From Neisseriaceae bacterium (lineage in GTDB: Bacteria > Pseudomonadota > Gammaproteobacteria > Burkholderiales > UBA11063), in assembly GCA_947446595.1 (NCBI GenBank), contig CANFGS010000042.1:1-8414 (forward strand): a stretch of 8,414 nt of DNA. The letters are read 5' to 3'. The notes below the pieces were generated by a model. It saw nothing but the letters and a program-made list of their open reading frames with translations, did no database searches and was not told the origin of the DNA. Position numbers and translations under genes: made by a program. Shown one piece after another: positions 1 through 8,414 of the stretch. Position 1 is the first letter of the stretch. Every line of letters begins with the position of its first letter.

Positions 1-56
1 GAAACCTTCAAACCCCACTGCTCGCAAGAGTGGTGGGGTTTTTTATTTGCGGCGTG
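1..56 (+). repeat. Copy A of the conserved porin post-stop/terminator element; it is cut by the window edge
   Basis: gaaaccttcaaaccccactgctcgcaagagtggtggggtttttt matches 7034-7077 with 3-4 differences. It also matches the reverse complement of 7632-7676. Weaker similarity to copy B continues for ~12 nt past the T-run (9/12). Confidence 0.8.
10..44 (+). terminator. Rho-independent terminator, presumably for a gene upstream of the window
   Basis: The 11-bp stem is ccccactgctc / gagtggtgggg (2 G-U pairs). It has a GCAA (GNRA) tetraloop and is followed by TTTTTT at 39-44. Confidence 0.8.
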
Positions 57-168
57 TACATCATGCATTAACAATTAGCAATATAGAAACTACTGTCACA
101 ACAATAACGGTTGGCGTGTAAATTAACTGTTGCAATATCACTTGCAATTAACCACAGGAGCACACGCA

Positions 169-402
169 ATGACAGACGCACATGACGCACAAAAGCAACT
201 TGAACAATTACTCAAGCAACAAGAAGATTTAGCAGCAAAGATTGATGCACAACGCAAAGCCAGTCGTGATGCTGCACTGGAAACGGTTAAGAATTTGTGC
301 AAAGCGTACGAATTTAGCGCGGCAGATTTGAAAGGTTACATCAAAGCCACACGCACACGCAGCGCAACTAAAAAGGCAACGCCTCGCAAAAGACGCAGCT
401 GA
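169..402 (+). CDS. Small H-NS-family-like protein: N-terminal coiled-coil/oligomerisation region plus a basic tail, with no recognisable C-terminal DNA-binding domain
   Basis: AGGAG at 156-160 lies 8 nt before the ATG at 169 (the ORF track starts at a TTG at 130). The pattern QKQLEQLLKQQEDLAAKIDAQRK...ETVKNLCKAYEFSAADL resembles the N-terminal half of betaproteobacterial H-NS-like proteins. The protein ends in ...KKATPRKRRS, without a TWxGRG-type motif. Confidence 0.6.
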   Translation: MTDAHDAQKQLEQLLKQQEDLAAKIDAQRKASRDAALETVKNLCKAYEFSAADLKGYIKATRTRSATKKATPRKRRS

Positions 403-502
403 ACAAGCAGCCAGCGTAATTAAGCACTGGGCGCATATTGTTTTACAACAGCACCGTCCAGTAACTGCTACTGCCACTTACCGCACACTAACGTCAGCAC
501 AA

Positions 503-1147
503 GTGCAGCGTTTGGAGCGTGTGTGCACACAGTTGTTGCGTGCTGCACATGCACCAGTAGCTGCTGCCAGCATGCGTGCAGTGCTAACGGCAGACGAATA
601 CGACACATACACAAGCCAACTGACAGCACCGCAAACGCACTATGACGTGCTACGTGAGCAGGGCAGACCAGATGCACTAACTGGATACATTGAACTGCTT
701 AGGCGTGCAGACTTTACAAATGCACGTGCAAACGCTGCAGCAAACCGCGTGAACAATTACAGGAATGCACTTAAGTTACGAGAACAAAGTGACCACGAGT
801 ATGAATTGGCGTGTGAATACATGGAAGAACAATTTAGCGTGTGTGACGCAGGCGAACGTGCGCGGTTGGAAGCGTGGTTGGACAGACCGTTTGACTACGG
901 CATTGGTGGCTTAATTAGCATTGACTGCGTGGGTGTTGCACGTGTAATTGGCAGCACCAGCCAATACTGCAGACACAAACAGGAGCGTGCACAACAGCAG
1001 CTGATTTGGCGACGACAGTGTCAGCTAGATGCTCTTGGAAGTGCGGCGTATGACATGTTGTACGAACCAGATGTTGCAGCCAATCCCACCATGAGCCATC
1101 GACTGTGTGCACTACTGGACAACCTGCGCGATGCAGACACCATTTAG
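503..1147 (+). CDS. Hypothetical protein (214 aa from GTG 503; an alternative ATG lies at 572)
   Basis: This is a long ORF with the same GCA/ACA/CAA codon preference as neighbouring island genes. No clear SD precedes either start. I recognise no family. Confidence 0.55.
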   Translation: MQRLERVCTQLLRAAHAPVAAASMRAVLTADEYDTYTSQLTAPQTHYDVLREQGRPDALTGYIELLRRADFTNARANAAANRVNNYRNALKLREQSDHEYELACEYMEEQFSVCDAGERARLEAWLDRPFDYGIGGLISIDCVGVARVIGSTSQYCRHKQERAQQQLIWRRQCQLDALGSAAYDMLYEPDVAANPTMSHRLCALLDNLRDADTI

Positions 1148-1165
1148 CTTGCAACAGCGTACAAA

Positions 1166-1738
1166 TTAAGCCAATTCAACTGCACGGCGCAGCATGTCAT
1201 CATTAGCGTCAATGTACACAGCAGTGGTGCTGATATTGCGGTGTCCCATCAAGCGCATGAGTACACGTATCCCAGTGCCTTGATTGGCTAAATTGGTTGC
1301 AAATGTTCTGCGTCCACTGTGGCTACTGGCACCATCAATGCCCGCGTTCCTGTACAACCAGCGCACATGTCCTGCAAGAGTGTTAGCAGTAAAGCCGCGG
1401 CGTGGCTTTTGTTGTGTGTAAAAAAACGCCCAGTCACCTGCGCGCTGTTTGGTAGTGTCAACGTAGCGTTGTAATTCCTTGCGCAGTCGCTCACTAACAA
1501 ACACCGTGCGTGCATGACAGCGTTTGGTTTGCTCTGCGCGCAGGTGTATCTCGTCACGTACACGTCCTGCGTCGTTAACAACATCAGCCCATGTAAGTGC
1601 AGCGCACTCACCTACACGTAAACCTGCCAAGTGTTGTAGCAATATGATTGCGCGGTTACGTGGTGCGTGCACACGTGTTGCTATGTGGTCTAGTACTCTG
1701 CGCAATTCCTGCGCACTAAATGTTTTTGCTTGTGCCAT
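1166..1738 (-). CDS. Short (190 aa) tyrosine recombinase / phage-integrase-family protein consisting essentially of the catalytic domain
   Basis: AAGGAG (1753-1748, minus strand) lies 9 nt before the ATG at 1738. Catalytic signature: GLRVGE (Arg I), HSGRRTF (H-x-x-R), GHRNISTTAVY (His ... Tyr nucleophile). No N-terminal arm-binding or SAM-like domain fits in 190 aa. Confidence 0.9.
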   Translation of the reverse strand: MAQAKTFSAQELRRVLDHIATRVHAPRNRAIILLQHLAGLRVGECAALTWADVVNDAGRVRDEIHLRAEQTKRCHARTVFVSERLRKELQRYVDTTKQRAGDWAFFYTQQKPRRGFTANTLAGHVRWLYRNAGIDGASSHSGRRTFATNLANQGTGIRVLMRLMGHRNISTTAVYIDANDDMLRRAVELA

Positions 1739-1830
1739 GTGTCAGTGCTCCTTAAAAGTTCACATAAATAAAGCACTAGCAGTATGTTTTCAGCGAGCCA
1801 GTTTGGGCAACCAGTTTGTGCAATATGCGC

Positions 1831-1853
1831 AGGTCTTTGTGTGTCAAAGACTT
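1831..1853 (-). promoter_or_regulatory. Operator-like palindrome overlapping a -35-like TTGACA, upstream of the short recombinase gene
   Basis: aggtctttg-tgtgt-caaagactt has 9-bp arms with 1 mismatch. On the minus strand it contains a perfect TTGACA (1847-1842). The best -10 candidate at 16-nt spacing is weak (TATTGC). Confidence 0.3.
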
Positions 1854-1981
1854 GCCAATTGGTTCACGGCTAATCGTTATTTTGTGTGGAAATATTTAGT
1901 ACTTTCTGTTGGCCGCACTAAATTAAGCCCTACAAGCTGTCAAATTACTAGCCAGCTACCAGACTAGCTGACAGGTGCTAA

Positions 1982-2026
1982 TGACGTGCTTTTGACGTGC
2001 GTTTGACGTGTTTGCGTGCGCGCACG
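1982..2026. promoter_or_regulatory. Iteron cluster: TGACGTG x3 at exact 11-bp phasing, a degenerate 4th copy, and a perfect 12-bp palindrome
   Basis: TGACGTG occurs at 1982, 1993 and 2004, each in a TTTGACGTGC-like unit. TG-CGTGC follows at 2013. CGTGCGCGCACG (2015-2026) is self-complementary. An A/T-rich tract follows at 2040-2105. Confidence 0.6.
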
Positions 2027-2125
2027 AAATGGGTTTTGCACATGACAAAATCAGTGCTGCGAAAAATTTACAAATCAAAATCTATTTGGTGTGGTGATTT
2101 TTTACCTATACCCACCACATTGATA

Positions 2126-2144
2126 GCGAACTTTGCAAGTTCGC
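2126..2144. other. Perfect 8-bp stem / 3-nt loop hairpin
   Basis: The sequence is gcgaactt-tgc-aagttcgc. No T-run follows on either strand, so I do not call it a terminator. Confidence 0.4.
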
Positions 2145-2280
2145 TTGTGCTTTCACAAAACACCTATCGCTCGTCGCTCAGTGTTTTATTCAGCACACTG
2201 TTGTGTTAAATGATTGAATTGCGAACACAACGCAGTTGTGTGAGTGGTATTGGGTTCATTTAGATAGATTAGATTGGACG

Positions 2281-2331
2281 CACGACGGCTATGTGACTTG
2301 GATAAGAAGTCAACATAACCGCCGTGTCGTG
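2281..2331. other. Long bulged palindrome with a 7-nt centre; candidate recombination core site or structured RNA/ssDNA element
   Basis: The left arm is cacgac-ggc-tatgt-gactt and the centre is ggataag. The right arm is aagtc-a-acata-acc-gcc-gt-gtcgtg. All blocks are complementary, with 6 extra nt in the right arm. Confidence 0.4.
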
Positions 2332-2554
2332 TAGTTTCATTTGAGTGAGTTGAGTCGTTACTACACGCCTGTAACAGAGTTGTGTGGAGACAGATGTATT
2401 GAAACTCCCAGCCGTGTGTTGCACGTACTGCTCTGCGGCATCACCATTTGTCACACGCTGTTACAGCAACGTGTGTAGTGCGGGGTCATTAGCCGTCATA
2501 TTACAACCCGCGTTTGTCCACTGTTAACGTGTTGGTTATCACGTGTGTATTTGA

Positions 2555-2938
2555 TTAGGTGCCTGATTTTGGTAGTAGCTTGTGTGCTGCGAACAGTTGC
2601 CTGTTTACTTTGGTTGCTATGTTTAGGACTGGATACGCGGATTCTGGTTTGAGTCGTGCGCACAGTTTGGTGTTACCAACGCGACGCTGGAAGTCGCGCA
2701 GGGTTTTGGATTGTTCAGTTGTTAATAGATTTGGATGTTGTGTGAGTAGAGTGTGTGCCGTAAGTTGTGCCTTTAGCAGTTTGGGATTTAGGTTGTTAAA
2801 TGTTGCCGTATTAAAGCCTGAGTTTTTAAGCCATTTATCAGTAGCCAACTTGGATTGGTTTTGCTTGCGCAGGATGCCAAACTGGGCATGTGTAAGTTTG
2901 TCTTTGAGTTGTTTCATATAGTTATTTAGCAAGACCAC
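2555..2938 (-). CDS. Hypothetical protein (127 aa from GTG 2938, or 120 aa from ATG 2917)
   Basis: The K/Q/L/T-rich ORF has island-typical codon usage. The overlapping plus-strand ORF (2559-2921) is Cys/Ser/Arg-rich, as expected for an antisense artefact. No convincing SD is present. Confidence 0.55.
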   Translation of the reverse strand: MVLLNNYMKQLKDKLTHAQFGILRKQNQSKLATDKWLKNSGFNTATFNNLNPKLLKAQLTAHTLLTQHPNLLTTEQSKTLRDFQRRVGNTKLCARLKPESAYPVLNIATKVNRQLFAAHKLLPKSGT

Positions 2939-3077
2939 ATAAAAGCAGATAAATTTCTTGGCAGATTTATGGCTTAAAACAGGCAGTTATGAGTGCAATA
3001 ACTGCTGCATGTGCATGATTTGGGCGAATTAGTTGGTAGTGTGCGGGTGTGAATAAATACATAAAAGGAGACCACAA

Positions 3078-3695
3078 GTGCGATTACAGGAATTTGCCAG
3101 TGCAGAAGAACAAATGGCGCTGTGGCGTTTGGTAAGTGACAGTGTGTGGGCAAGTATTGGCCAACAAGCACACCTTGAACGGCAAGAGCGTGCTGCAAAA
3201 GCTGCGCAGGCTAAAACTAAACGCAAACGTGGAAATAGAGCAGGTAGTAAATCAAGCAGCACACCAGTGCCAATTAAGATGCCAAAGCAACCAAATAACA
3301 AAGTTGCAACAGCAAATGCACCAACTGCACCAACTGCAGCCAACACTGCGCCAGTTGGTAATGCTGTGGCTAATGCAAGCACGAGTGGTATGTACAAGAA
3401 TGGCAGCAACACGAATGCAGCAAACAAAATAGCAGCCAATTCAAATGTTGCAATCACGCCAACAACAGCCGCACAACCAAGTCCTGCATTTAGTCCAGCA
3501 CATCCTGCAACACCAACAGTTCCCGCGCCAGCAAATTACAGTACACAAAAAGCGTCTAGCGGGTCACAAGACGCATTTAATTGGCGAAATACACCTACAC
3601 ACAAAAAATTACCAGCCGCCACCGACAGGCATAGTGCAAATGCTTACCGCACACAAACAGTGCATCCAAGTGCACGTGGTGCAATAACCCGATAA
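3078..3695 (+). CDS. Hypothetical protein: short structured N-terminus, a K/R-rich linker, then a long A/T/N/P-rich low-complexity region
   Basis: AAAGGAG (GGAG at 3067-3070) lies 7 nt before the GTG at 3078. Codon choice (GCA, ACA, CAA, CCA) matches the other island genes. I recognise no family. Confidence 0.6.
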   Translation: MRLQEFASAEEQMALWRLVSDSVWASIGQQAHLERQERAAKAAQAKTKRKRGNRAGSKSSSTPVPIKMPKQPNNKVATANAPTAPTAANTAPVGNAVANASTSGMYKNGSNTNAANKIAANSNVAITPTTAAQPSPAFSPAHPATPTVPAPANYSTQKASSGSQDAFNWRNTPTHKKLPAATDRHSANAYRTQTVHPSARGAITR

Positions 3696-3785
3696 ATTGG
3701 CGGTGTAAACATAGAGTGTGGTTGCCCAAGTGTGCGGGCTGACAATAAAGTTTGTGCTGTAACGACAACACAACGGAGTAATTAA

Positions 3786-4238
3786 ATGTCAACAGCAACA
3801 CTTGCAACGCTCTCAGCGTTGAAATTAACAGCAGCACGTAAACCTCGTGCACTACCTGAGGCTGTCAAACGCCGTAACAAACTGCTCAACAAATTAAAAG
3901 AGCAACGCGAACTTGCACTGGCGCAAAGCGAAGGACGTACATATGTGCCCAAACGTCTGCGTACCGTGCGTGACTTGGATGGCAACAGAGTAGTGCGTGA
4001 AATGCCTGTGCGTATCAAGCCTTGGTGGTGGACAGGCGAGAAGAACGAGACACTGCTGAGCGTGTTCTACGGTAGCAAGACGTTGGAGTTGGGCAAAGGT
4101 AAGACAGCAGTTGAAATTGCCAACCCACGCGAACTGGTCAATGTGCTGGATGTGTTGATTACTGCAACGCAAAACGCAGAATTGGATGCACAGATTGATG
4201 CTGCCAGCAATAAGTTACGCGATAGCTTTAAGAAATAG
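3786..4238 (+). CDS. Conserved-looking hypothetical protein (150 aa)
   Basis: GGAG at 3775-3778 lies 7 nt before the ATG at 3786. The motifs RRNKLL..L.EQ...A, IKPWWW, YGSK.LELGKGKTAVE and ELDAQID recall an uncharacterised proteobacterial family often seen near integrases. That link is from memory only and I cannot name the family reliably. Confidence 0.7.
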   Translation: MSTATLATLSALKLTAARKPRALPEAVKRRNKLLNKLKEQRELALAQSEGRTYVPKRLRTVRDLDGNRVVREMPVRIKPWWWTGEKNETLLSVFYGSKTLELGKGKTAVEIANPRELVNVLDVLITATQNAELDAQIDAASNKLRDSFKK

Positions 4239-4277
4239 CTAATGGATAGCAAAGACTAGACAGCAGAGCATTAACGC

Positions 4278-5594
4278 TTAGGTGCGTTTGCTCTGCAGCA
4301 TGGCAATATTTTGCTCACCCGTTACCGTACTGGCGTAGTGGTTGTTGATAACTTCTACGCTGGTACGTGCATTTCGCGCCAATGTCACCAAGTCAATTCC
4401 TTGACCGTACAAGAGCCTAAATGTAATGGCGCTGTGGCGCAGACTGTAAAGGCTTCGCGGATTACCATGCGGATTGAGCTTTAATCCAGTGTGCTGTAAC
4501 ACCCAGTTAAACATATAACTGAGCACGTTCATTGCGTAGCGACGGTTGGGAATGTCTGGCAAGAACAGGTAATCATTTGTACCAATACGCTTGCGTGGTG
4601 TTTGGTACTGGCATATTTGACGGTAAATGCGCACAGCAGGCAGCAGCGTAACAATGGGCGCAGCGTGCAACTTGGTCTCAGGCAATGTCAATCGTAAATA
4701 TGTCTGCTTGCTGTGTACGATTTCCACATGACGGTGGCGTAGCTTAACCAAGTCACCTGGACGGATAAAGCTATTGACCATAAACCCAATCGCCCAAGCA
4801 ACATCTGGTGGCATACGATTGTCGTTGTAGCACTGTTGTAAGCGTTTACGCATGTCTTTGCGTGTGTCTGGATGCGTTGTGCCACGCAGTGCACGTGCAG
4901 CACGTAGCAATTGCCAATATTCTGTAGGTGTAAATGCGCCGCGTGACGTGCTGCGAACTTTGATTTTGGGGACATCTGGCACATGTTCAATTAAACCTGT
5001 GCGTTGTGCATGCGTCAGCACCTTTCGCACAATTACAAGGTAATGGCTAACTGTGGTTGTGCTGAACTTGGCGCTGAGTGTCTGTGCAAATGCCAGTAAC
5101 TTTTGGTAAGTTAATTCACCAATCAACTTGGTGCCAAATGCAGGCAATATGTGTGCATCCAAACGGTTACGAAACATTCGTAAACTGCCTGCACCATATT
5201 CACCGCGTTCAACACGTGCTTGCTCGTTTGCATAAACTTGTGCTGCAACGGCACCAAATGTCATTTGTGCTGGTGTATTGCTGTCATTTCCAGTCGTACC
5301 CTGCAGACTTGCATGCTGGGAATACTTGACCAACAAGTCTTCATAAAACCAACGTGCAAATCTCTGTGCCAACACTAGATTACATGTTTTGGTACTTTGC
5401 TTGTGTGTGCGTCCTGCATGCCAGCAACGCACTTGCCAATATCTACTGGCTGCTATTTTGTAGATAACCAATTTGTTTGGGTAATTTGGTACTGCGGTGA
5501 TGCTTGATGGTATTGGTACGGTGCGTGTGCGTTTAATCAAACGGTCGTTGGCTGCATCAATTTGGTAGTTGGCAACTGTTGTCATCATGCTCAC
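4278..5594 (-). CDS. Tyrosine integrase, 438 aa (phage-integrase family)
   Basis: The C-terminal catalytic domain carries FIRPGD (Arg I), LYSLRHSAITF and LARNARTSVEVINNHY (Tyr nucleophile). The N-terminal ~230 aa is long enough for arm- and core-binding domains. The start is GTG 5594 or ATG 5588/5585, and the SD is weak. Confidence 0.9.
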   Translation of the reverse strand: MSMMTTVANYQIDAANDRLIKRTRTVPIPSSITAVPNYPNKLVIYKIAASRYWQVRCWHAGRTHKQSTKTCNLVLAQRFARWFYEDLLVKYSQHASLQGTTGNDSNTPAQMTFGAVAAQVYANEQARVERGEYGAGSLRMFRNRLDAHILPAFGTKLIGELTYQKLLAFAQTLSAKFSTTTVSHYLVIVRKVLTHAQRTGLIEHVPDVPKIKVRSTSRGAFTPTEYWQLLRAARALRGTTHPDTRKDMRKRLQQCYNDNRMPPDVAWAIGFMVNSFIRPGDLVKLRHRHVEIVHSKQTYLRLTLPETKLHAAPIVTLLPAVRIYRQICQYQTPRKRIGTNDYLFLPDIPNRRYAMNVLSYMFNWVLQHTGLKLNPHGNPRSLYSLRHSAITFRLLYGQGIDLVTLARNARTSVEVINNHYASTVTGEQNIAMLQSKRT

Positions 5595-5807
5595 AGCTTA
5601 AAGTAGCACGCCGCAAAGGTCTAGCAAATAAGTTTTGTGTGTGCAAATTACAGCGTGCGATATCACCTTCAGTCAGCCGCTAAACAACCGTTCCTGCCGT
5701 GCACAAAATAGACTAATTAGTGTTGTTATTTGTGCGTGACATGTAGCGCACTTCAAACCGTACAACTTGTTGCAATTACAAATTGGTGCTGTCAATGTAG
5801 CACCTTG

Positions 5808-5849
5808 CAAATACCTTTTAGCAACTAGCTGCCGCAGGCAAATGTGCAA
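5808..5849 (+). repeat. Conserved leader at the integrase/porin junction (module 1)
   Basis: caaatacc..ctgcc..ggcaaatgtgcaa aligns by hand with the reverse complement of 7817-7855 (caaatacg..ctgcc..ggtaaatgtgcta). About 29-30 of ~42 columns match, with 3 small gaps. Confidence 0.45.
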
Positions 5850-5860
5850 CCCTCGTTGCA

Positions 5861-7000
5861 TTGGCTGCACTCGTAAGCGTGACAGCGTTCGCACAAACAT
5901 CTGTAAAACTGTTGGGAAACATTGACGCTGGATATCAATCCAACGATTACAAAGGAAACAAGATTTCCGGTATCAACAACAACGGCTCTGCTACTTCACA
6001 AATCGACATTGAAGTTATTGAAGATTTGGGCGGCGGTTTGAAAGCTAAAGTTTGGTTGGAATCAGACATCAACCCAGTTGCTGCTCAAGCTAACACTGGT
6101 TATGCCTCAAGTATCAAATCAGGTACTGACGCAGGCGGCGGTACTTGGTTGAACTCTGAGCAAAAAGTTGGCTTGGCTGGCAATTTTGGTGAAGTTGCTG
6201 TTGGTGTTGTCAACAACAAAACATTAGCTGCCAACGGTACAGGTCAACCTTTTGGTACTGCCATTGGTTCTGGCTACGGTAGCATCATCAAGGCTTCTGC
6301 TGGCGTTGCTGCAAGCACTGCTTCAGTTGTTCGCTTTGACAACTCTGTTCGTTACGACACACCCGTTGTTAATGGCTTCTCTGGTTCGGTTTACTACGTG
6401 GCAAAACAAGCTGTCAGTAACGGCAAAGCTAACTACAGCACAACATTGGGCGCGTTCAGCAAGGCTGGTATCAATGAATATTCAGTAAACTACTCAAACG
6501 GTCCAGTGAATGCAACCTATGTCATTCAACAAGCTGATTACAACGGCGTAGTGACTCCTGGTGCTGTTGACTACAACACAGCAACTGCTGGTGTACCTAC
6601 TGCTGTCGCTGGAACAGCTTTGACAACAAAGTCTTCTTTGAAGACTCTGTCTGCTAGCTACGCTTGGAACGCATTTACCTTTGGTGCGACAACTCAATCA
6701 TTGAAAGATGATGCATCTACAAATGCAGTTAACACCAAAGCCACCTTGGGTAGTGTTAAGTACACAATGGGCGCAACAATGCTCGGCCTAACATCAGGTT
6801 CTTTGACAAACAGTGTTACCAACACAAAGTCAACATTCTTGGGTTACGGTGCTCAGTATCAATTGAGCAAAACGACAAAAGTCTACGCTCAGTTTGAAAC
6901 TCTGAATGACGACGGCGGTACAGTAGCAGCAGTTACTGGTTACACCGAAGTTGGTACAAAGCGTACTCGCTCAGGTTTAGGTGTTAACGTCGCCTTCTAA
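5861..7000 (+). CDS. Outer-membrane general-diffusion porin (Gram-negative porin family); the 5' end appears incomplete
   Basis: It has a signal-peptide C-region ...ALVSVTAFA|QTS and a mature N-terminus SVKLLGNIDAGY. It has a G/N/T/S/Y-rich beta-barrel composition and a C-terminal ...GLGVNVAF with terminal Phe. Codon usage looks like a highly expressed gene (GGT/GCT/ACT). The only in-frame start after the TAG at 5819-5821 is TTG 5861, which has no SD. Confidence 0.85.
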   Translation: MAALVSVTAFAQTSVKLLGNIDAGYQSNDYKGNKISGINNNGSATSQIDIEVIEDLGGGLKAKVWLESDINPVAAQANTGYASSIKSGTDAGGGTWLNSEQKVGLAGNFGEVAVGVVNNKTLAANGTGQPFGTAIGSGYGSIIKASAGVAASTASVVRFDNSVRYDTPVVNGFSGSVYYVAKQAVSNGKANYSTTLGAFSKAGINEYSVNYSNGPVNATYVIQQADYNGVVTPGAVDYNTATAGVPTAVAGTALTTKSSLKTLSASYAWNAFTFGATTQSLKDDASTNAVNTKATLGSVKYTMGATMLGLTSGSLTNSVTNTKSTFLGYGAQYQLSKTTKVYAQFETLNDDGGTVAAVTGYTEVGTKRTRSGLGVNVAF

Positions 7001-7080
7001 TCCCCGCGCTGGCTAAACCAGTTAAGGATTTAGAAAACCTTGAAACCCCATTGCTCGCAAGAGTGGTGGGGTTTTTTAAT
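6994..7080 (+). repeat. Copy B of the porin post-stop element (last two codons, small hairpin, terminator)
   Basis: By hand alignment about 80 of 88 positions are identical to the reverse complement of 7629-7716. Its 3' half matches 1-47. Confidence 0.9.
7043..7077 (+). terminator. Rho-independent terminator of the porin gene
   Basis: The stem is ccccattgctc / gagtggtgggg with a GCAA loop, followed by TTTTTT at 7072-7077. Confidence 0.85.
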
Positions 7081-7101
7081 TGTGGGGTGGTGTTTGCTGT
7101 T

Positions 7102-7539
7102 GTGAAAGAAAGGATAACGATTGTTGGCACTATTTATGGCTTTTCCGATGCTAAGGCTATAAACGAAATTTATTGCGACACACATTGCTCCCAATACCCA
7201 ACGGTGCGCCCTTTGACAAAAATTCGTACACAAATTGAATTGGATGATGGCACAGAGGTTTGGGTCGATGGTGTTCCAAAATTTTGCGATGAAGACGACA
7301 TCCTAGATATTGAAACTGAAGAAGTTGATCTTGACAGCCTGTGTGCAGACATCTCGCAAGCGATTAATTCTGGTTGGATTGAAATTGGCTTAATAGCCAA
7401 TGAGAAGCTTAGATATGCTTATTACCAAACGCTGAAAATCTATTCCAATGGACAAGGCGTAAGAACATACGCCTTGACTGGACAGCAATTCCCGCAAGGA
7501 GTTACAACTGAATTCACTAAGTTGTTTCAGTCTATTTGA
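7102..7539 (+). CDS. Hypothetical small acidic protein; the start is uncertain (GTG 7102 proposed)
   Basis: The ORF is open from 7051, but 7051-7080 is terminator repeat. The frame has no ATG codon at all. The AT-rich codon usage differs from the island. A clean terminator follows, and I recognise no family. Confidence 0.5.
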   Translation: MKERITIVGTIYGFSDAKAINEIYCDTHCSQYPTVRPLTKIRTQIELDDGTEVWVDGVPKFCDEDDILDIETEEVDLDSLCADISQAINSGWIEIGLIANEKLRYAYYQTLKIYSNGQGVRTYALTGQQFPQGVTTEFTKLFQSI

Positions 7540-7558
7540 CAGTCTTTTATTAATTTTT

Positions 7559-7582
7559 AACCCGCCTTAGTGCGGGTTTTTT
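7559..7582 (+). terminator. Rho-independent terminator of the 7102-7539 ORF
   Basis: The stem is aacccgc / gcgggtt with a cttagt loop. The T-run is at 7577-7582. Confidence 0.8.
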
Positions 7583-7594
7583 ATTGCCTATATC

Positions 7595-7611
7595 TGTCGT
7601 GTAACACGACA
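7595..7611. other. Perfect 8-bp-arm palindrome TGTCGTGT-A-ACACGACA
   Basis: Read directly from the sequence. It lies between two convergent terminators, and its function is unknown. Confidence 0.35.
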
Positions 7612-7628
7612 CCACAAACTACTCGCCC

Positions 7629-7716
7629 ATTAAAAAACCCCACCACTCTTGCGAGCATTGGGGTTTAAAGGTTTTCTAAATCCTCTAACTGGCTAAGCCA
7701 GCAGGGGGATTAGAAG
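7629..7716 (-). repeat. Copy C of the porin post-stop element, inverted
   Basis: The reverse complement is cttctaatccccctgctggcttagccagttagaggatttagaaaacctttaaaccccaatgctcgcaagagtggtggggttttttaat. This aligns with 6994-7080. Confidence 0.9.
7632..7666 (-). terminator. Rho-independent terminator (minus strand) behind the porin remnant
   Basis: It is the same hairpin as copies A and B, with one A.G mismatch in the stem. On the minus strand a T6 run follows (plus-strand A6 at 7632-7637). Confidence 0.7.
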
Positions 7717-7817
7717 TTCTTGCGCAAAGCAATAGAAGTGATCTTCTGTGTCTCGCCCAACATGTTGACCATCTGACCGCCGTAGGCGTTGTTGCCTTGA
7801 TAGAACATGCCATAGCT
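7710..7817 (-). pseudogene. Porin gene remnant: the last ~35 codons plus the stop
   Basis: The minus-strand translation is ...SYGMFYQGNNAYGGQMVNMLGETQKITSIALRKNF*. This aligns with the final strands of the intact porin (Y..F...N..GG ... L/G..x.F). A near-identical porin 3' UTR follows. The rest of the 84-aa ORF (7710-7964) is antisense to the integrase fragment. Confidence 0.75.
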
Positions 7818-8414
7818 AGCACATTTACCGATTGGCAGAAAGATAAACGTATTTGGATCAAAAGCAACTACCACCAAATGCCCTACGAAATGACAAGCTT
7901 GATTCGGTTCATGGTGTACACCTTTGTTCGGCCAGGTGATATTCGTCAAATTCAAAACAAACACATAGAAATCATCAAAGGCCAGTACAACTATTTACGG
8001 TTAAACCTGCCAGAGGTAAAGCGGCACAAGGCTGCGACCGTTAGCTTGCCACCAGCAGTCAATATTTACAAGCATCTAATGGCTTATCAAACGTCGCGCG
8101 GCTATGGCAAACCAGATGACTATGTGTTCTTTCCAGAAGAAAAAAACCGCCGTTTGATGCTCGACATCATCGGTTGGTTGTTCAATTGGATATTGAAAGA
8201 TTTAGATTTCAAATTAGGGCCACATGGTGTCGAGCGCACTTTGTATAGCTTGCGTCACACGGCTATTACTTTTAGGTTGATTTATGGTGGCAATATCGAT
8301 TTGTTAACCCTTGCCCGAAATGCCCGTACATCGGTGGAGATGATTGAAAAGTTTTATGCCAGTACCTTGTCTGCGGAGATGAATATTGCACTTTTACATG
8401 GTAAACGCCGCTAA
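7797..8414 (+). pseudogene. 5'-truncated paralog of the 438-aa integrase (catalytic domain only); its stop codon is the last triplet of the window
   Basis: From about nt 7866 the translation aligns with residues ~256-438 of the 4278-5594 product. By hand count 89 of 168 residues are identical from FMV onward, including FVRPGD, LYSLRHTAITF and TLARNARTSVEMI..FY. The N-terminal ~250 codons are absent. The ORF opens only with a TTG at 7797, and no SD is present. Confidence 0.7.
7817..7855 (-). repeat. Conserved leader at the integrase/porin junction (module 2)
   Basis: See 5808-5849. In both copies GGY AAA TGT GCW (G-K-C-A) is in the porin reading frame. Confidence 0.45.

Follow-up and report, generated by a model that had tools for sequence, protein, structure and literature searches.

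The 8,414-nucleotide (nt) stretch analysed here, which we call the window, covers positions 1 to 8,414 (forward strand) of contig CANFGS010000042.1 from the Neisseriaceae bacterium assembly GCA_947446595.1, and its host belongs to an uncultured freshwater Burkholderiales lineage. In it a porin gene without a beginning, porinA, lies next to a divergent tyrosine integrase gene, int1 (4278-5594, minus strand, 438 amino acids (aa)), with a segment that we call J (5595-5848) between the two. The porinA body (5849-7000, plus strand) comprises 383 codons plus the stop codon and is without codons 1-3. It matches the Pfam family Porin_4 over its full length (E 5.6e-35, profile positions 3-309 of 310), its protein has a C-terminal aromatic residue (..GVNVAF) and, save for the first three codons, a signal peptide is present; by these family features a Gram-negative porin is predicted. 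We consider it likely that an integrative element exchanges the body of its target porin, in frame and at codon 4, and that porinA is the resident copy that was displaced.

The frame of porinA opens after a TAG at 5819-5821, as the initial annotation had it, and reads onward as QLAAAGKCA TLVALAALVSVTAFA|QTSVKLLGNIDAGY (after the bar, QTSVKLLGN). In what follows, E designates the normal upstream part of an expressed allele, J the sequence that replaces it, and L001 and so on are related loci. The closest database protein (P0001), 98% identical to the window porin, begins MKKTLVALAALVSVTAFAQ and is encoded on contigs L001-L003, so that three further contigs have this porin with its normal MKK start. 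Homology to this expressed allele begins exactly at 5848/5849 of the window, in the DNA alignment and by BLAST, and upstream of 5848 none was found over >250 nt: the expressed allele reads ..GGAGAAACTTGAAATGAAAAAA|ACCCTCGTTGC where the window reads ..GCCGCAGGCAAATGTGCA|ACCCTCGTTGC or, in a longer view, ..CCTTGGAGAAACTTGAAATGAAAAAA|ACCCTCGTTGCATTGG against ..GCTGCCGCAGGCAAATGTGCA|ACCCTCGTTGCATTGG. The promoter side, the Shine-Dalgarno (SD) sequence and the first three codons are thus exactly the portion swapped for other DNA. To the right of the break, L002/L003 and the window are 98.9% identical over 1235 nt, and window positions 5848-7810 correspond to L001 324-2281 at 95.4% over 1963 nt. The 11-nt sequence that begins at the break, ACCCTCGTTGC (5849-5859, plus strand), encodes porin codons 4-7 (T L V A) and occurs a single time in the window; we refer to it as the recombination core.

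An ordinary pseudogene or a sequencing error, in which a local mutation or indel destroyed the start, could be suspected from an AAATG superficially common to J and the true start region, and the initial annotation had asked whether a homopolymer at 5849-5853 concealed a frameshift. Those positions read ACCCT, which is no real homopolymer, the same J type is present on seven other contigs, and a local lesion agrees neither with the full loss of homology upstream nor with an undamaged body. On this sequence evidence the loss of the start is real and a sequencing error is ruled out, and we hold this whole explanation to be next to impossible. The body, described as free of internal stops, is indeed open through 7000. 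It is 98.7-98.9% identical in nucleotides to the E-linked alleles of L001-L003, from which it differs by 13-14 substitutions (7 nonsynonymous) and 0 indels in 1152 nt; the frameshifts, stops and relaxed constraint of a decaying pseudogene are not found. porinA thus appears to be silent yet intact rather than decaying, in agreement with the earlier view of a gene silenced but not long dead.

That porinA is silent follows, in our reading, from the missing SD sequence, start codon and n-region of the signal peptide, together with the in-frame stop. No in-frame ATG occurs between the TAG at 5819-5821 and the body. It had been claimed that no GTG precedes the mature protein either, but there is one in frame at 5879-5881, the second V of VSVTAFA, five codons before the predicted cleavage site; a start at this position could not, from its predicted product, yield a signal peptide. 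The TTG at 5861 is not the sole in-frame candidate that it had been thought to be. It does lack an SD sequence (upstream GTGCAACCCTCGTTGCA), and it would leave 11 uncharged residues, not 12. The ATG at 5842 lies, just as described, in another frame, which ends after 27 codons (MCNPRC...GKH, stop at 5923-5925). A plus-strand promoter-like site was sought in J and none was found, although promoter scans were uninformative for J and E alike.

J is the intergenic region ahead of int1, conserved in 8 int1-type loci, and we interpret it as an element-derived arm that stands in place of the promoter, the SD sequence and ATG AAA AAA, and that holds the TAG at 5819-5821. The window-type J junction is joined to other porins on seven other independent contigs (L005, L007-L010, L013 and L066); in L007 the J-int segment is 88% identical in nucleotides to that of the window, but the porin is unrelated, and homology ends at the core. 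int1 matches the PHROG_1 integrase (E 8.8e-27) and Pfam Phage_int_M, and four aligned family members all have R277, K307, R385 and Y419; the PF00589 score is below threshold, a PDB sequence search gave no match, and there was no match to integron integrases. With an alignment of four members as query, 440 int1-family relatives were found in metagenome contigs and two in species-representative genomes.

Both the E leader (AAACCTTGGAGAACCTTGAAATG) and all of the unrelated J families carry, in our reading, two ACCTT-like motifs, 10-14 nt apart, within some 45 nt upstream of the core; in the window the two read GCACCTTG (about 5800) and ATACCTTT (about 5812). These pairs on the left of the core may be integrase-binding half-sites. 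Of the GCAAAT(T)AC-like blocks proposed as arm-type sites, the one at 5771 is conserved in 8/8 related J regions; those at 5642 and 5807 are not conserved across these regions, and the specific assignment of arm sites is not supported. One of the loci with the window-type junction, L066, is a decayed element, its integrase truncated after about 340 residues and everything from DUF6641 up to an RNA-like block missing, with J and a start-less porin kept.

Our survey covered 80+ related loci, and its junction counts are for the TLVA-type core only. A divergent porin lies within 450 nt of an int1-family integrase in 57 of the 58 loci with enough upstream sequence, and the start codon is absent from all int-adjacent divergent porins surveyed. 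Of 74 junctions typed, 22 are of the E type and 52 of the J type, and J falls into at least five unrelated sequence families. All 74 join at the same nucleotide to ACCCTCGTTGC, which is identical, its three wobble positions included, in 73; the single exception has one substitution. The suggestion of a recombinase site at the break is therefore well founded, in the form of an invariant 11-nt core beside a tyrosine integrase. The earlier proposal that the motif GGYAAATGTGCWA marks an equivalent junction at 7817-7829 did not hold: that copy is on the minus strand, has 2 mismatches to the copy at 5837-5849, and lies within the coding sequence of a second integrase, int2, ten of its bases being, in reverse complement, native int2 codons (..T F T..) shared by the intact integrase of L001. 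At up to 2 mismatches the 13-mer has 3 hits in the window against 1.0 expected, a number reached in 14/200 shuffles. We rejected it as a recombination site, given its native int2 codons and the lack of enrichment.

Exchange of cassettes by RecA-dependent recombination or gene conversion, through conserved 5' (signal-peptide) and 3' (terminator) segments and with the integrase a mere neighbour, would fit the sharing of some 50-100 nt at the 5' end and some 90 nt at the 3' end of the cassettes, and also the reshuffled look of their signal-peptide variants. Homologous exchange would, however, scatter its breakpoints, whereas five unrelated J families break at one nucleotide; the core is invariant at wobble positions, and the integrase adjoins the break in nearly every locus. 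We find gene conversion distinctly unlikely. An assembly chimera, with the contig jumping between genomes at the short shared core and signal sequence, might be feared as well, since the join lies in sequence repeated among cassettes and metagenome contigs often break next to the integrase (L001, L005, L006). But the sequence shared with other cassettes amounts here to only 11-50 nt, the same architecture recurs in about 60 independent contigs from many samples, and both flanks are individually corroborated, so that an artefact of this kind is most improbable.

An in-frame stop lies 0-13 codons upstream of the core in 52/52 J junctions, and in 51 of them no ATG, GTG or TTG intervenes between this stop and the core. 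All of the J-linked porins that could be read to their end (42/42) are intact open reading frames of 322-435 codons (median 383), comparable figures for the E-linked porins (n=22) being 338-398 codons. One might argue from this intactness, and from the in-frame TTG and GTG within the signal sequence, that J-linked porins are still made by unconventional initiation, at TTG 5861, at GTG 5879 or by read-through. The lack of an SD sequence, the stop in every J, the absence of a promoter-like site on the plus strand and a product that would be without its positively charged n-region or its entire signal peptide leave this only a very small probability, and the J-linked copies are probably not expressed, as judged from their sequences. 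Half of the twelve closest porin homologs (P0002, P0007, P0009-P0012) begin within or after the signal peptide, at an internal GTG, ATG or TTG (for example VSAFAQSS.. or MTAFAQSS..). By their sequences, they are probably start-less silent cassettes that gene callers have misannotated, and many database porins with internal GTG or TTG starts (P0002, P0007 and P0009 among them) are probably likewise silent cassettes without their MKK start, which matters for annotation.

The standard order of the related loci runs from the chromosome (SBP3 and others) through a leftward porin without a start, the core, J and the rightward integrase to a leftward DUF6641 gene, a small recombinase, variable cargo and the far end, where a second leftward porin is followed by the core, ATGAAAAAA and a 5' untranslated region (UTR) and then by rightward COQ7, OsmC and ThrDH. 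The elements measure some 6-11 kb. The modules of the window (small recombinase, the block at 2125-2515, DUF6641, int1, J and porin) keep the same relative order. All of the loci with >9.5 kb downstream (9/9) have a second, like-oriented porin 3.4-8.2 kb past the integrase. Among 21 far-end porins typed with the TLVA core, 18 are E-linked (ATG AAA AAA) and three (L022, L042 and L057) are J-linked; the far-end porins of L063 and L071 are also without a start. COQ7 directly follows the far-end porin in nine loci (L010, L013, L014, L025, L028, L030, L035, L058 and L061), and the L040 contig extends to the start of a COQ7 gene. The window holds the int-proximal copy of the core only; a J-core and an E-core in direct orientation are found in L010, L013, L014, L025, L028, L030, L035, L040 and L058. 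In most loci the two porins share little past the first 50-100 nt or so of the 5' end, and are therefore different proteins. Tandem arrays are found in L035, L022 and L057. In L005 the int-adjacent target porin has ispB as its neighbour, and in L006 it faces a porin that adjoins fur.

An unoccupied target is available in L004, a locus from a 1.2-Mb contig with COQ7, an E-porin, TPR, GT8 and SBP3 and no integrase, whose flanks match the outer flanks of the occupied loci, and L001-L003 hold porinA itself with E and MKK. Two pairs of loci further illustrate the states before and after insertion. In the first, L051 1-2092 equals L025 16812-18903 at 99.3%, with a 100% identical porin body; at the core, L025 runs into E and COQ7, and L051 into a different J and an integrase. 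The same porin would thus be of the expressed type (E-linked) in L025 and silent beside a newly arrived integrase in L051. The second pair is the window and L001, which correspond from the core rightwards through a small gene (orf162), a porin remnant (porinB) and int2; on its left L001 has E, with 200 upstream nt that match the COQ7-porin spacer of L004 and L010. In both pairs the int-adjacent porin and its outer flank were there before, and what was added starts with J-int at the core; by topology, the inserted unit is the segment between the cores (J, int, cargo and far-end porin body). An element with terminator-to-terminator boundaries that carries the int-adjacent porin was rejected, as this porin is resident DNA in both pairs. 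L040 and L042, recovered from different samples, agree fully over 20,672 nt and part at the core (locus position 20671), where L040 joins the far-end porin to E and COQ7 and L042 joins it to the element's own J; the latter junction may belong to a circle or a tandem copy, or the assembler may have jumped over a repeat of about 80 nt.

These pairs also bear on a shufflon-like invertible switch, in which the integrase would flip a segment between inverted cores and the window would be the off copy. Such a switch shares the logic of an expression site with silent copies, and in L001, L006, L074 and L076 an E-porin does face a porin-J-int arrangement with inverted cores. There is, however, only one core in the window, and no inverted sites flank a switched segment; int1-type loci (L010, L013, L009) and most others have direct cores with a 4-8 kb element in between, L076 has ordinary chromosomal genes between its convergent porins, which points to two separate target loci, and the L051/L025 pair is an insertion with no flip. 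Inversion, a model drawn from L001, was dropped as the main mechanism after the synteny survey, and we regard it as unlikely. In our reading the convergent cases reflect a number of porin paralogs, any of which can be targeted, and the integrase might in addition invert DNA that lies between inverted cores.

The 3' ends of the cassettes are conserved too. That of porinA (7001-7078, plus strand) includes a terminator at 7042-7075, and a near-identical inverted copy of it is present at 7636-7712 on the minus strand, each of about 77 nt and running from stop codon to terminator; the same segment follows porins in L004, L009, L010, L035 and L058. Each cassette thus has a very divergent body between 5' and 3' ends that are conserved. 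Between the two copies lies orf162 (7051-7539, plus strand), with 85% aa identity in L001 and 78% in L009, for whose protein no family was found. About 30 codons at the beginning of orf162 coincide with the terminator hairpin of porinA, and the predicted true start of orf162 is probably further downstream, near 7150, because homology to L009 begins only at 7162. Beyond it, the porinB remnant (7636-7808, minus strand) retains the 3' conserved segment and the last 32 codons (7713-7808), and a deletion junction at 7809-7819, with CATGC microhomology, leads into the 3' half of int2 (7820-8414, plus strand), 96.5% identical in nucleotides to L001 4383-4977. Compared with L001, about 2.1 kb (2282-4382) is missing, that is, most of porinB, its J' and int2 codons 1 to about 237; some 9 nt around the joint (7806-7820) align poorly. 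The full-length int2, judged on the intact L001 copy, is 41% identical to int1. By comparison with L001, porinB had been displaced by a second, older element, and this element has suffered an ordinary deletion, which shows how old displaced cassettes get lost.

On the other side of int1, and convergent with it, lies a DUF6641 gene (3786-4238, plus strand; Pfam DUF6641 E 1.5e-9), which accompanies the integrase in nearly all elements of the synteny table and whose product is, from this association, a candidate accessory or directionality factor. Between it and the small recombinase, a structured-RNA-like block (2125-2515, plus strand) is conserved at 70-78% of nucleotides across otherwise variable cargos; RNAalifold predicts 93 pairs, 24 of them with compensatory changes, and the 3' end is terminator-like. 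No Rfam family was found for the window, this block included, nor for L001 or L010. By the modelled fold, it is probably an undescribed structured RNA of some 350-400 nt. The small recombinase (1166-1738, minus strand, 190 aa; PF00589 E 2.4e-28) is a tyrosine recombinase reduced to the catalytic domain, with weak matches to Xer, to integron integrases (far below the cut-off) and to Fim-type invertases. It has homologs of 43-56% identity (86% in L066) in about 30 loci, so that each of these elements has two recombinases. The RNA and the small recombinase may have a role in site choice or excision, for example. Further cargo (1-1165) consists of orf90 (130-402) and orf214 (503-1147), and the element runs past the left end of the window; homologs of orf214 adjoin the far-end porin in L037 and L048 and lie in the cargo of L056. 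PADLOC gave no defence matches for ten cargo proteins.

We thus propose that the element, which would consist of J, int1, DUF6641, the structured-RNA-like block, the small recombinase, cargo and, at its far end, a porin body without promoter or start, is recombined by its integrase at the 11-nt core ACCCTCGTTGC with the core of a chromosomal porin gene. The catalyst would be int1 rather than the small recombinase, and strand exchange would take place within the core. Integration would join the host promoter, 5' UTR, SD sequence and first three codons to the porin body of the element; the core stands in frame after ATG AAA AAA, and therefore both fusions would keep the reading frame. The former porin body (porinA in this case) would be parked behind J with no SD sequence, no start and the TAG at 5819, and by analogy with the related loci the new porin should occupy the expression site to the left of the window in this genome. 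Repeated integrations would build tandem arrays of intact silent cassettes, and excision or deletion between cores could return an older one to the expression site.

The junction anatomy, the element architecture, the empty site and the two before/after pairs are read directly off the contigs; several other observations weigh against this proposal. Scans upstream of E in L004 and L001 gave no sigma-70 consensus promoter, and for this reason the host promoter is inferred from the conserved 5' UTR and SD sequence. In int1 a Tyr replaces the usual His of HxxR and the third His is unclear, so that its activity, judged from sequence, is putative. The far end of the element and the expression site lie outside the window, and the direct repeat and the incoming porin are supplied by analogy; the candidate for an excised circle, the L042 join, could be an assembly jump over the repeat. 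The ratio of nonsynonymous to synonymous substitution rates between porinA and the expressed alleles is about 0.35, on a basis of only 13-14 changes, and the complete intactness of the silent copies fits fast turnover or selection alike. Finally, the search for genes of transfer, replication or phages in the cargo recognised none, only the integrase and PHROGs of unknown function matched, and the element has no relatives in IMG/VR; a phage origin was rejected on the PHROG and IMG/VR results.

Such elements occur in many freshwater Burkholderiales. These bacteria are abundant in lakes, their main exposed proteins are porins, and porins often serve as phage receptors in Gram-negative bacteria. 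The likely benefit would be a changed surface-exposed porin, for instance in escape from phages or grazers. If the proposal is true, a one-step change of porin without loss of function would be a compact means of rapid surface diversification in natural populations, and would explain the high variability of this porin locus. It would also illustrate how a site-specific recombinase can fuse proteins precisely and in frame at a core as short as 11 invariant nt. A full-text search of the literature, incomplete in coverage and no proof of novelty, found no description of such a porin-swap system. We regard as evenly balanced the proposition that these are an undescribed class of self-mobile porin-swap elements in freshwater Burkholderiales, which combine in-frame integration at codon 4, reusable integron-like arrays of displaced intact bodies, and a conserved structured RNA beside a domain-minimal tyrosine recombinase.

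The closest parallel in logic may be drawn with integrons, where a tyrosine recombinase likewise brings promoterless units into one expression site, the latest of them being expressed and the older ones pushed away into silent arrays. The porin elements differ in that the integrase travels on the mobile unit and not on the platform, that the site lies inside a coding sequence and gives an in-frame fusion after codon 3, that the units are of about 6-11 kb with cargo instead of single genes ending in attC hairpins, and that recombination is at the 5' core and not at a 3' hairpin. int1 is not of the IntI type, and the element does not qualify as an integron. Successive elements also stack at one att site in SCCmec/ACME at orfX and in islands at tRNA genes, as they do here in L035, L022 and L057 and in L051 compared with L025; here, however, the target is the 5' end of a porin, and each event changes the expressed gene.

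Expression sites with silent cassettes are known from vsa of Mycoplasma pulmonis (HvsR), the omp1 inversions of Dichelobacter nodosus and pilE/pilS of Neisseria, where, as here, one site gives the promoter and 5' end and the silent copies, otherwise intact, are without exactly that part; in vsa and omp1 the site of recombination is again inside the 5' coding part of a gene for a surface or outer-membrane protein. There, inversion or gene conversion rearranges a repertoire already fixed in the chromosome, whereas here new bodies would arrive on a self-contained integrative element, in a direct-repeat geometry, and the arrays would grow by accretion. Integration inside genes is familiar from converting prophages and islands, such as the hlb-converting phages of S. 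aureus, the active lysogeny of the Listeria comK phage and skin/sigK of Bacillus, in which a tyrosine or serine integrase also targets a coding sequence and the split gene is undamaged, so that excision can restore it. In the present element no phage genes were found. Those elements only interrupt their target, whereas here the body would be replaced in frame, with the porin function kept and the protein changed.

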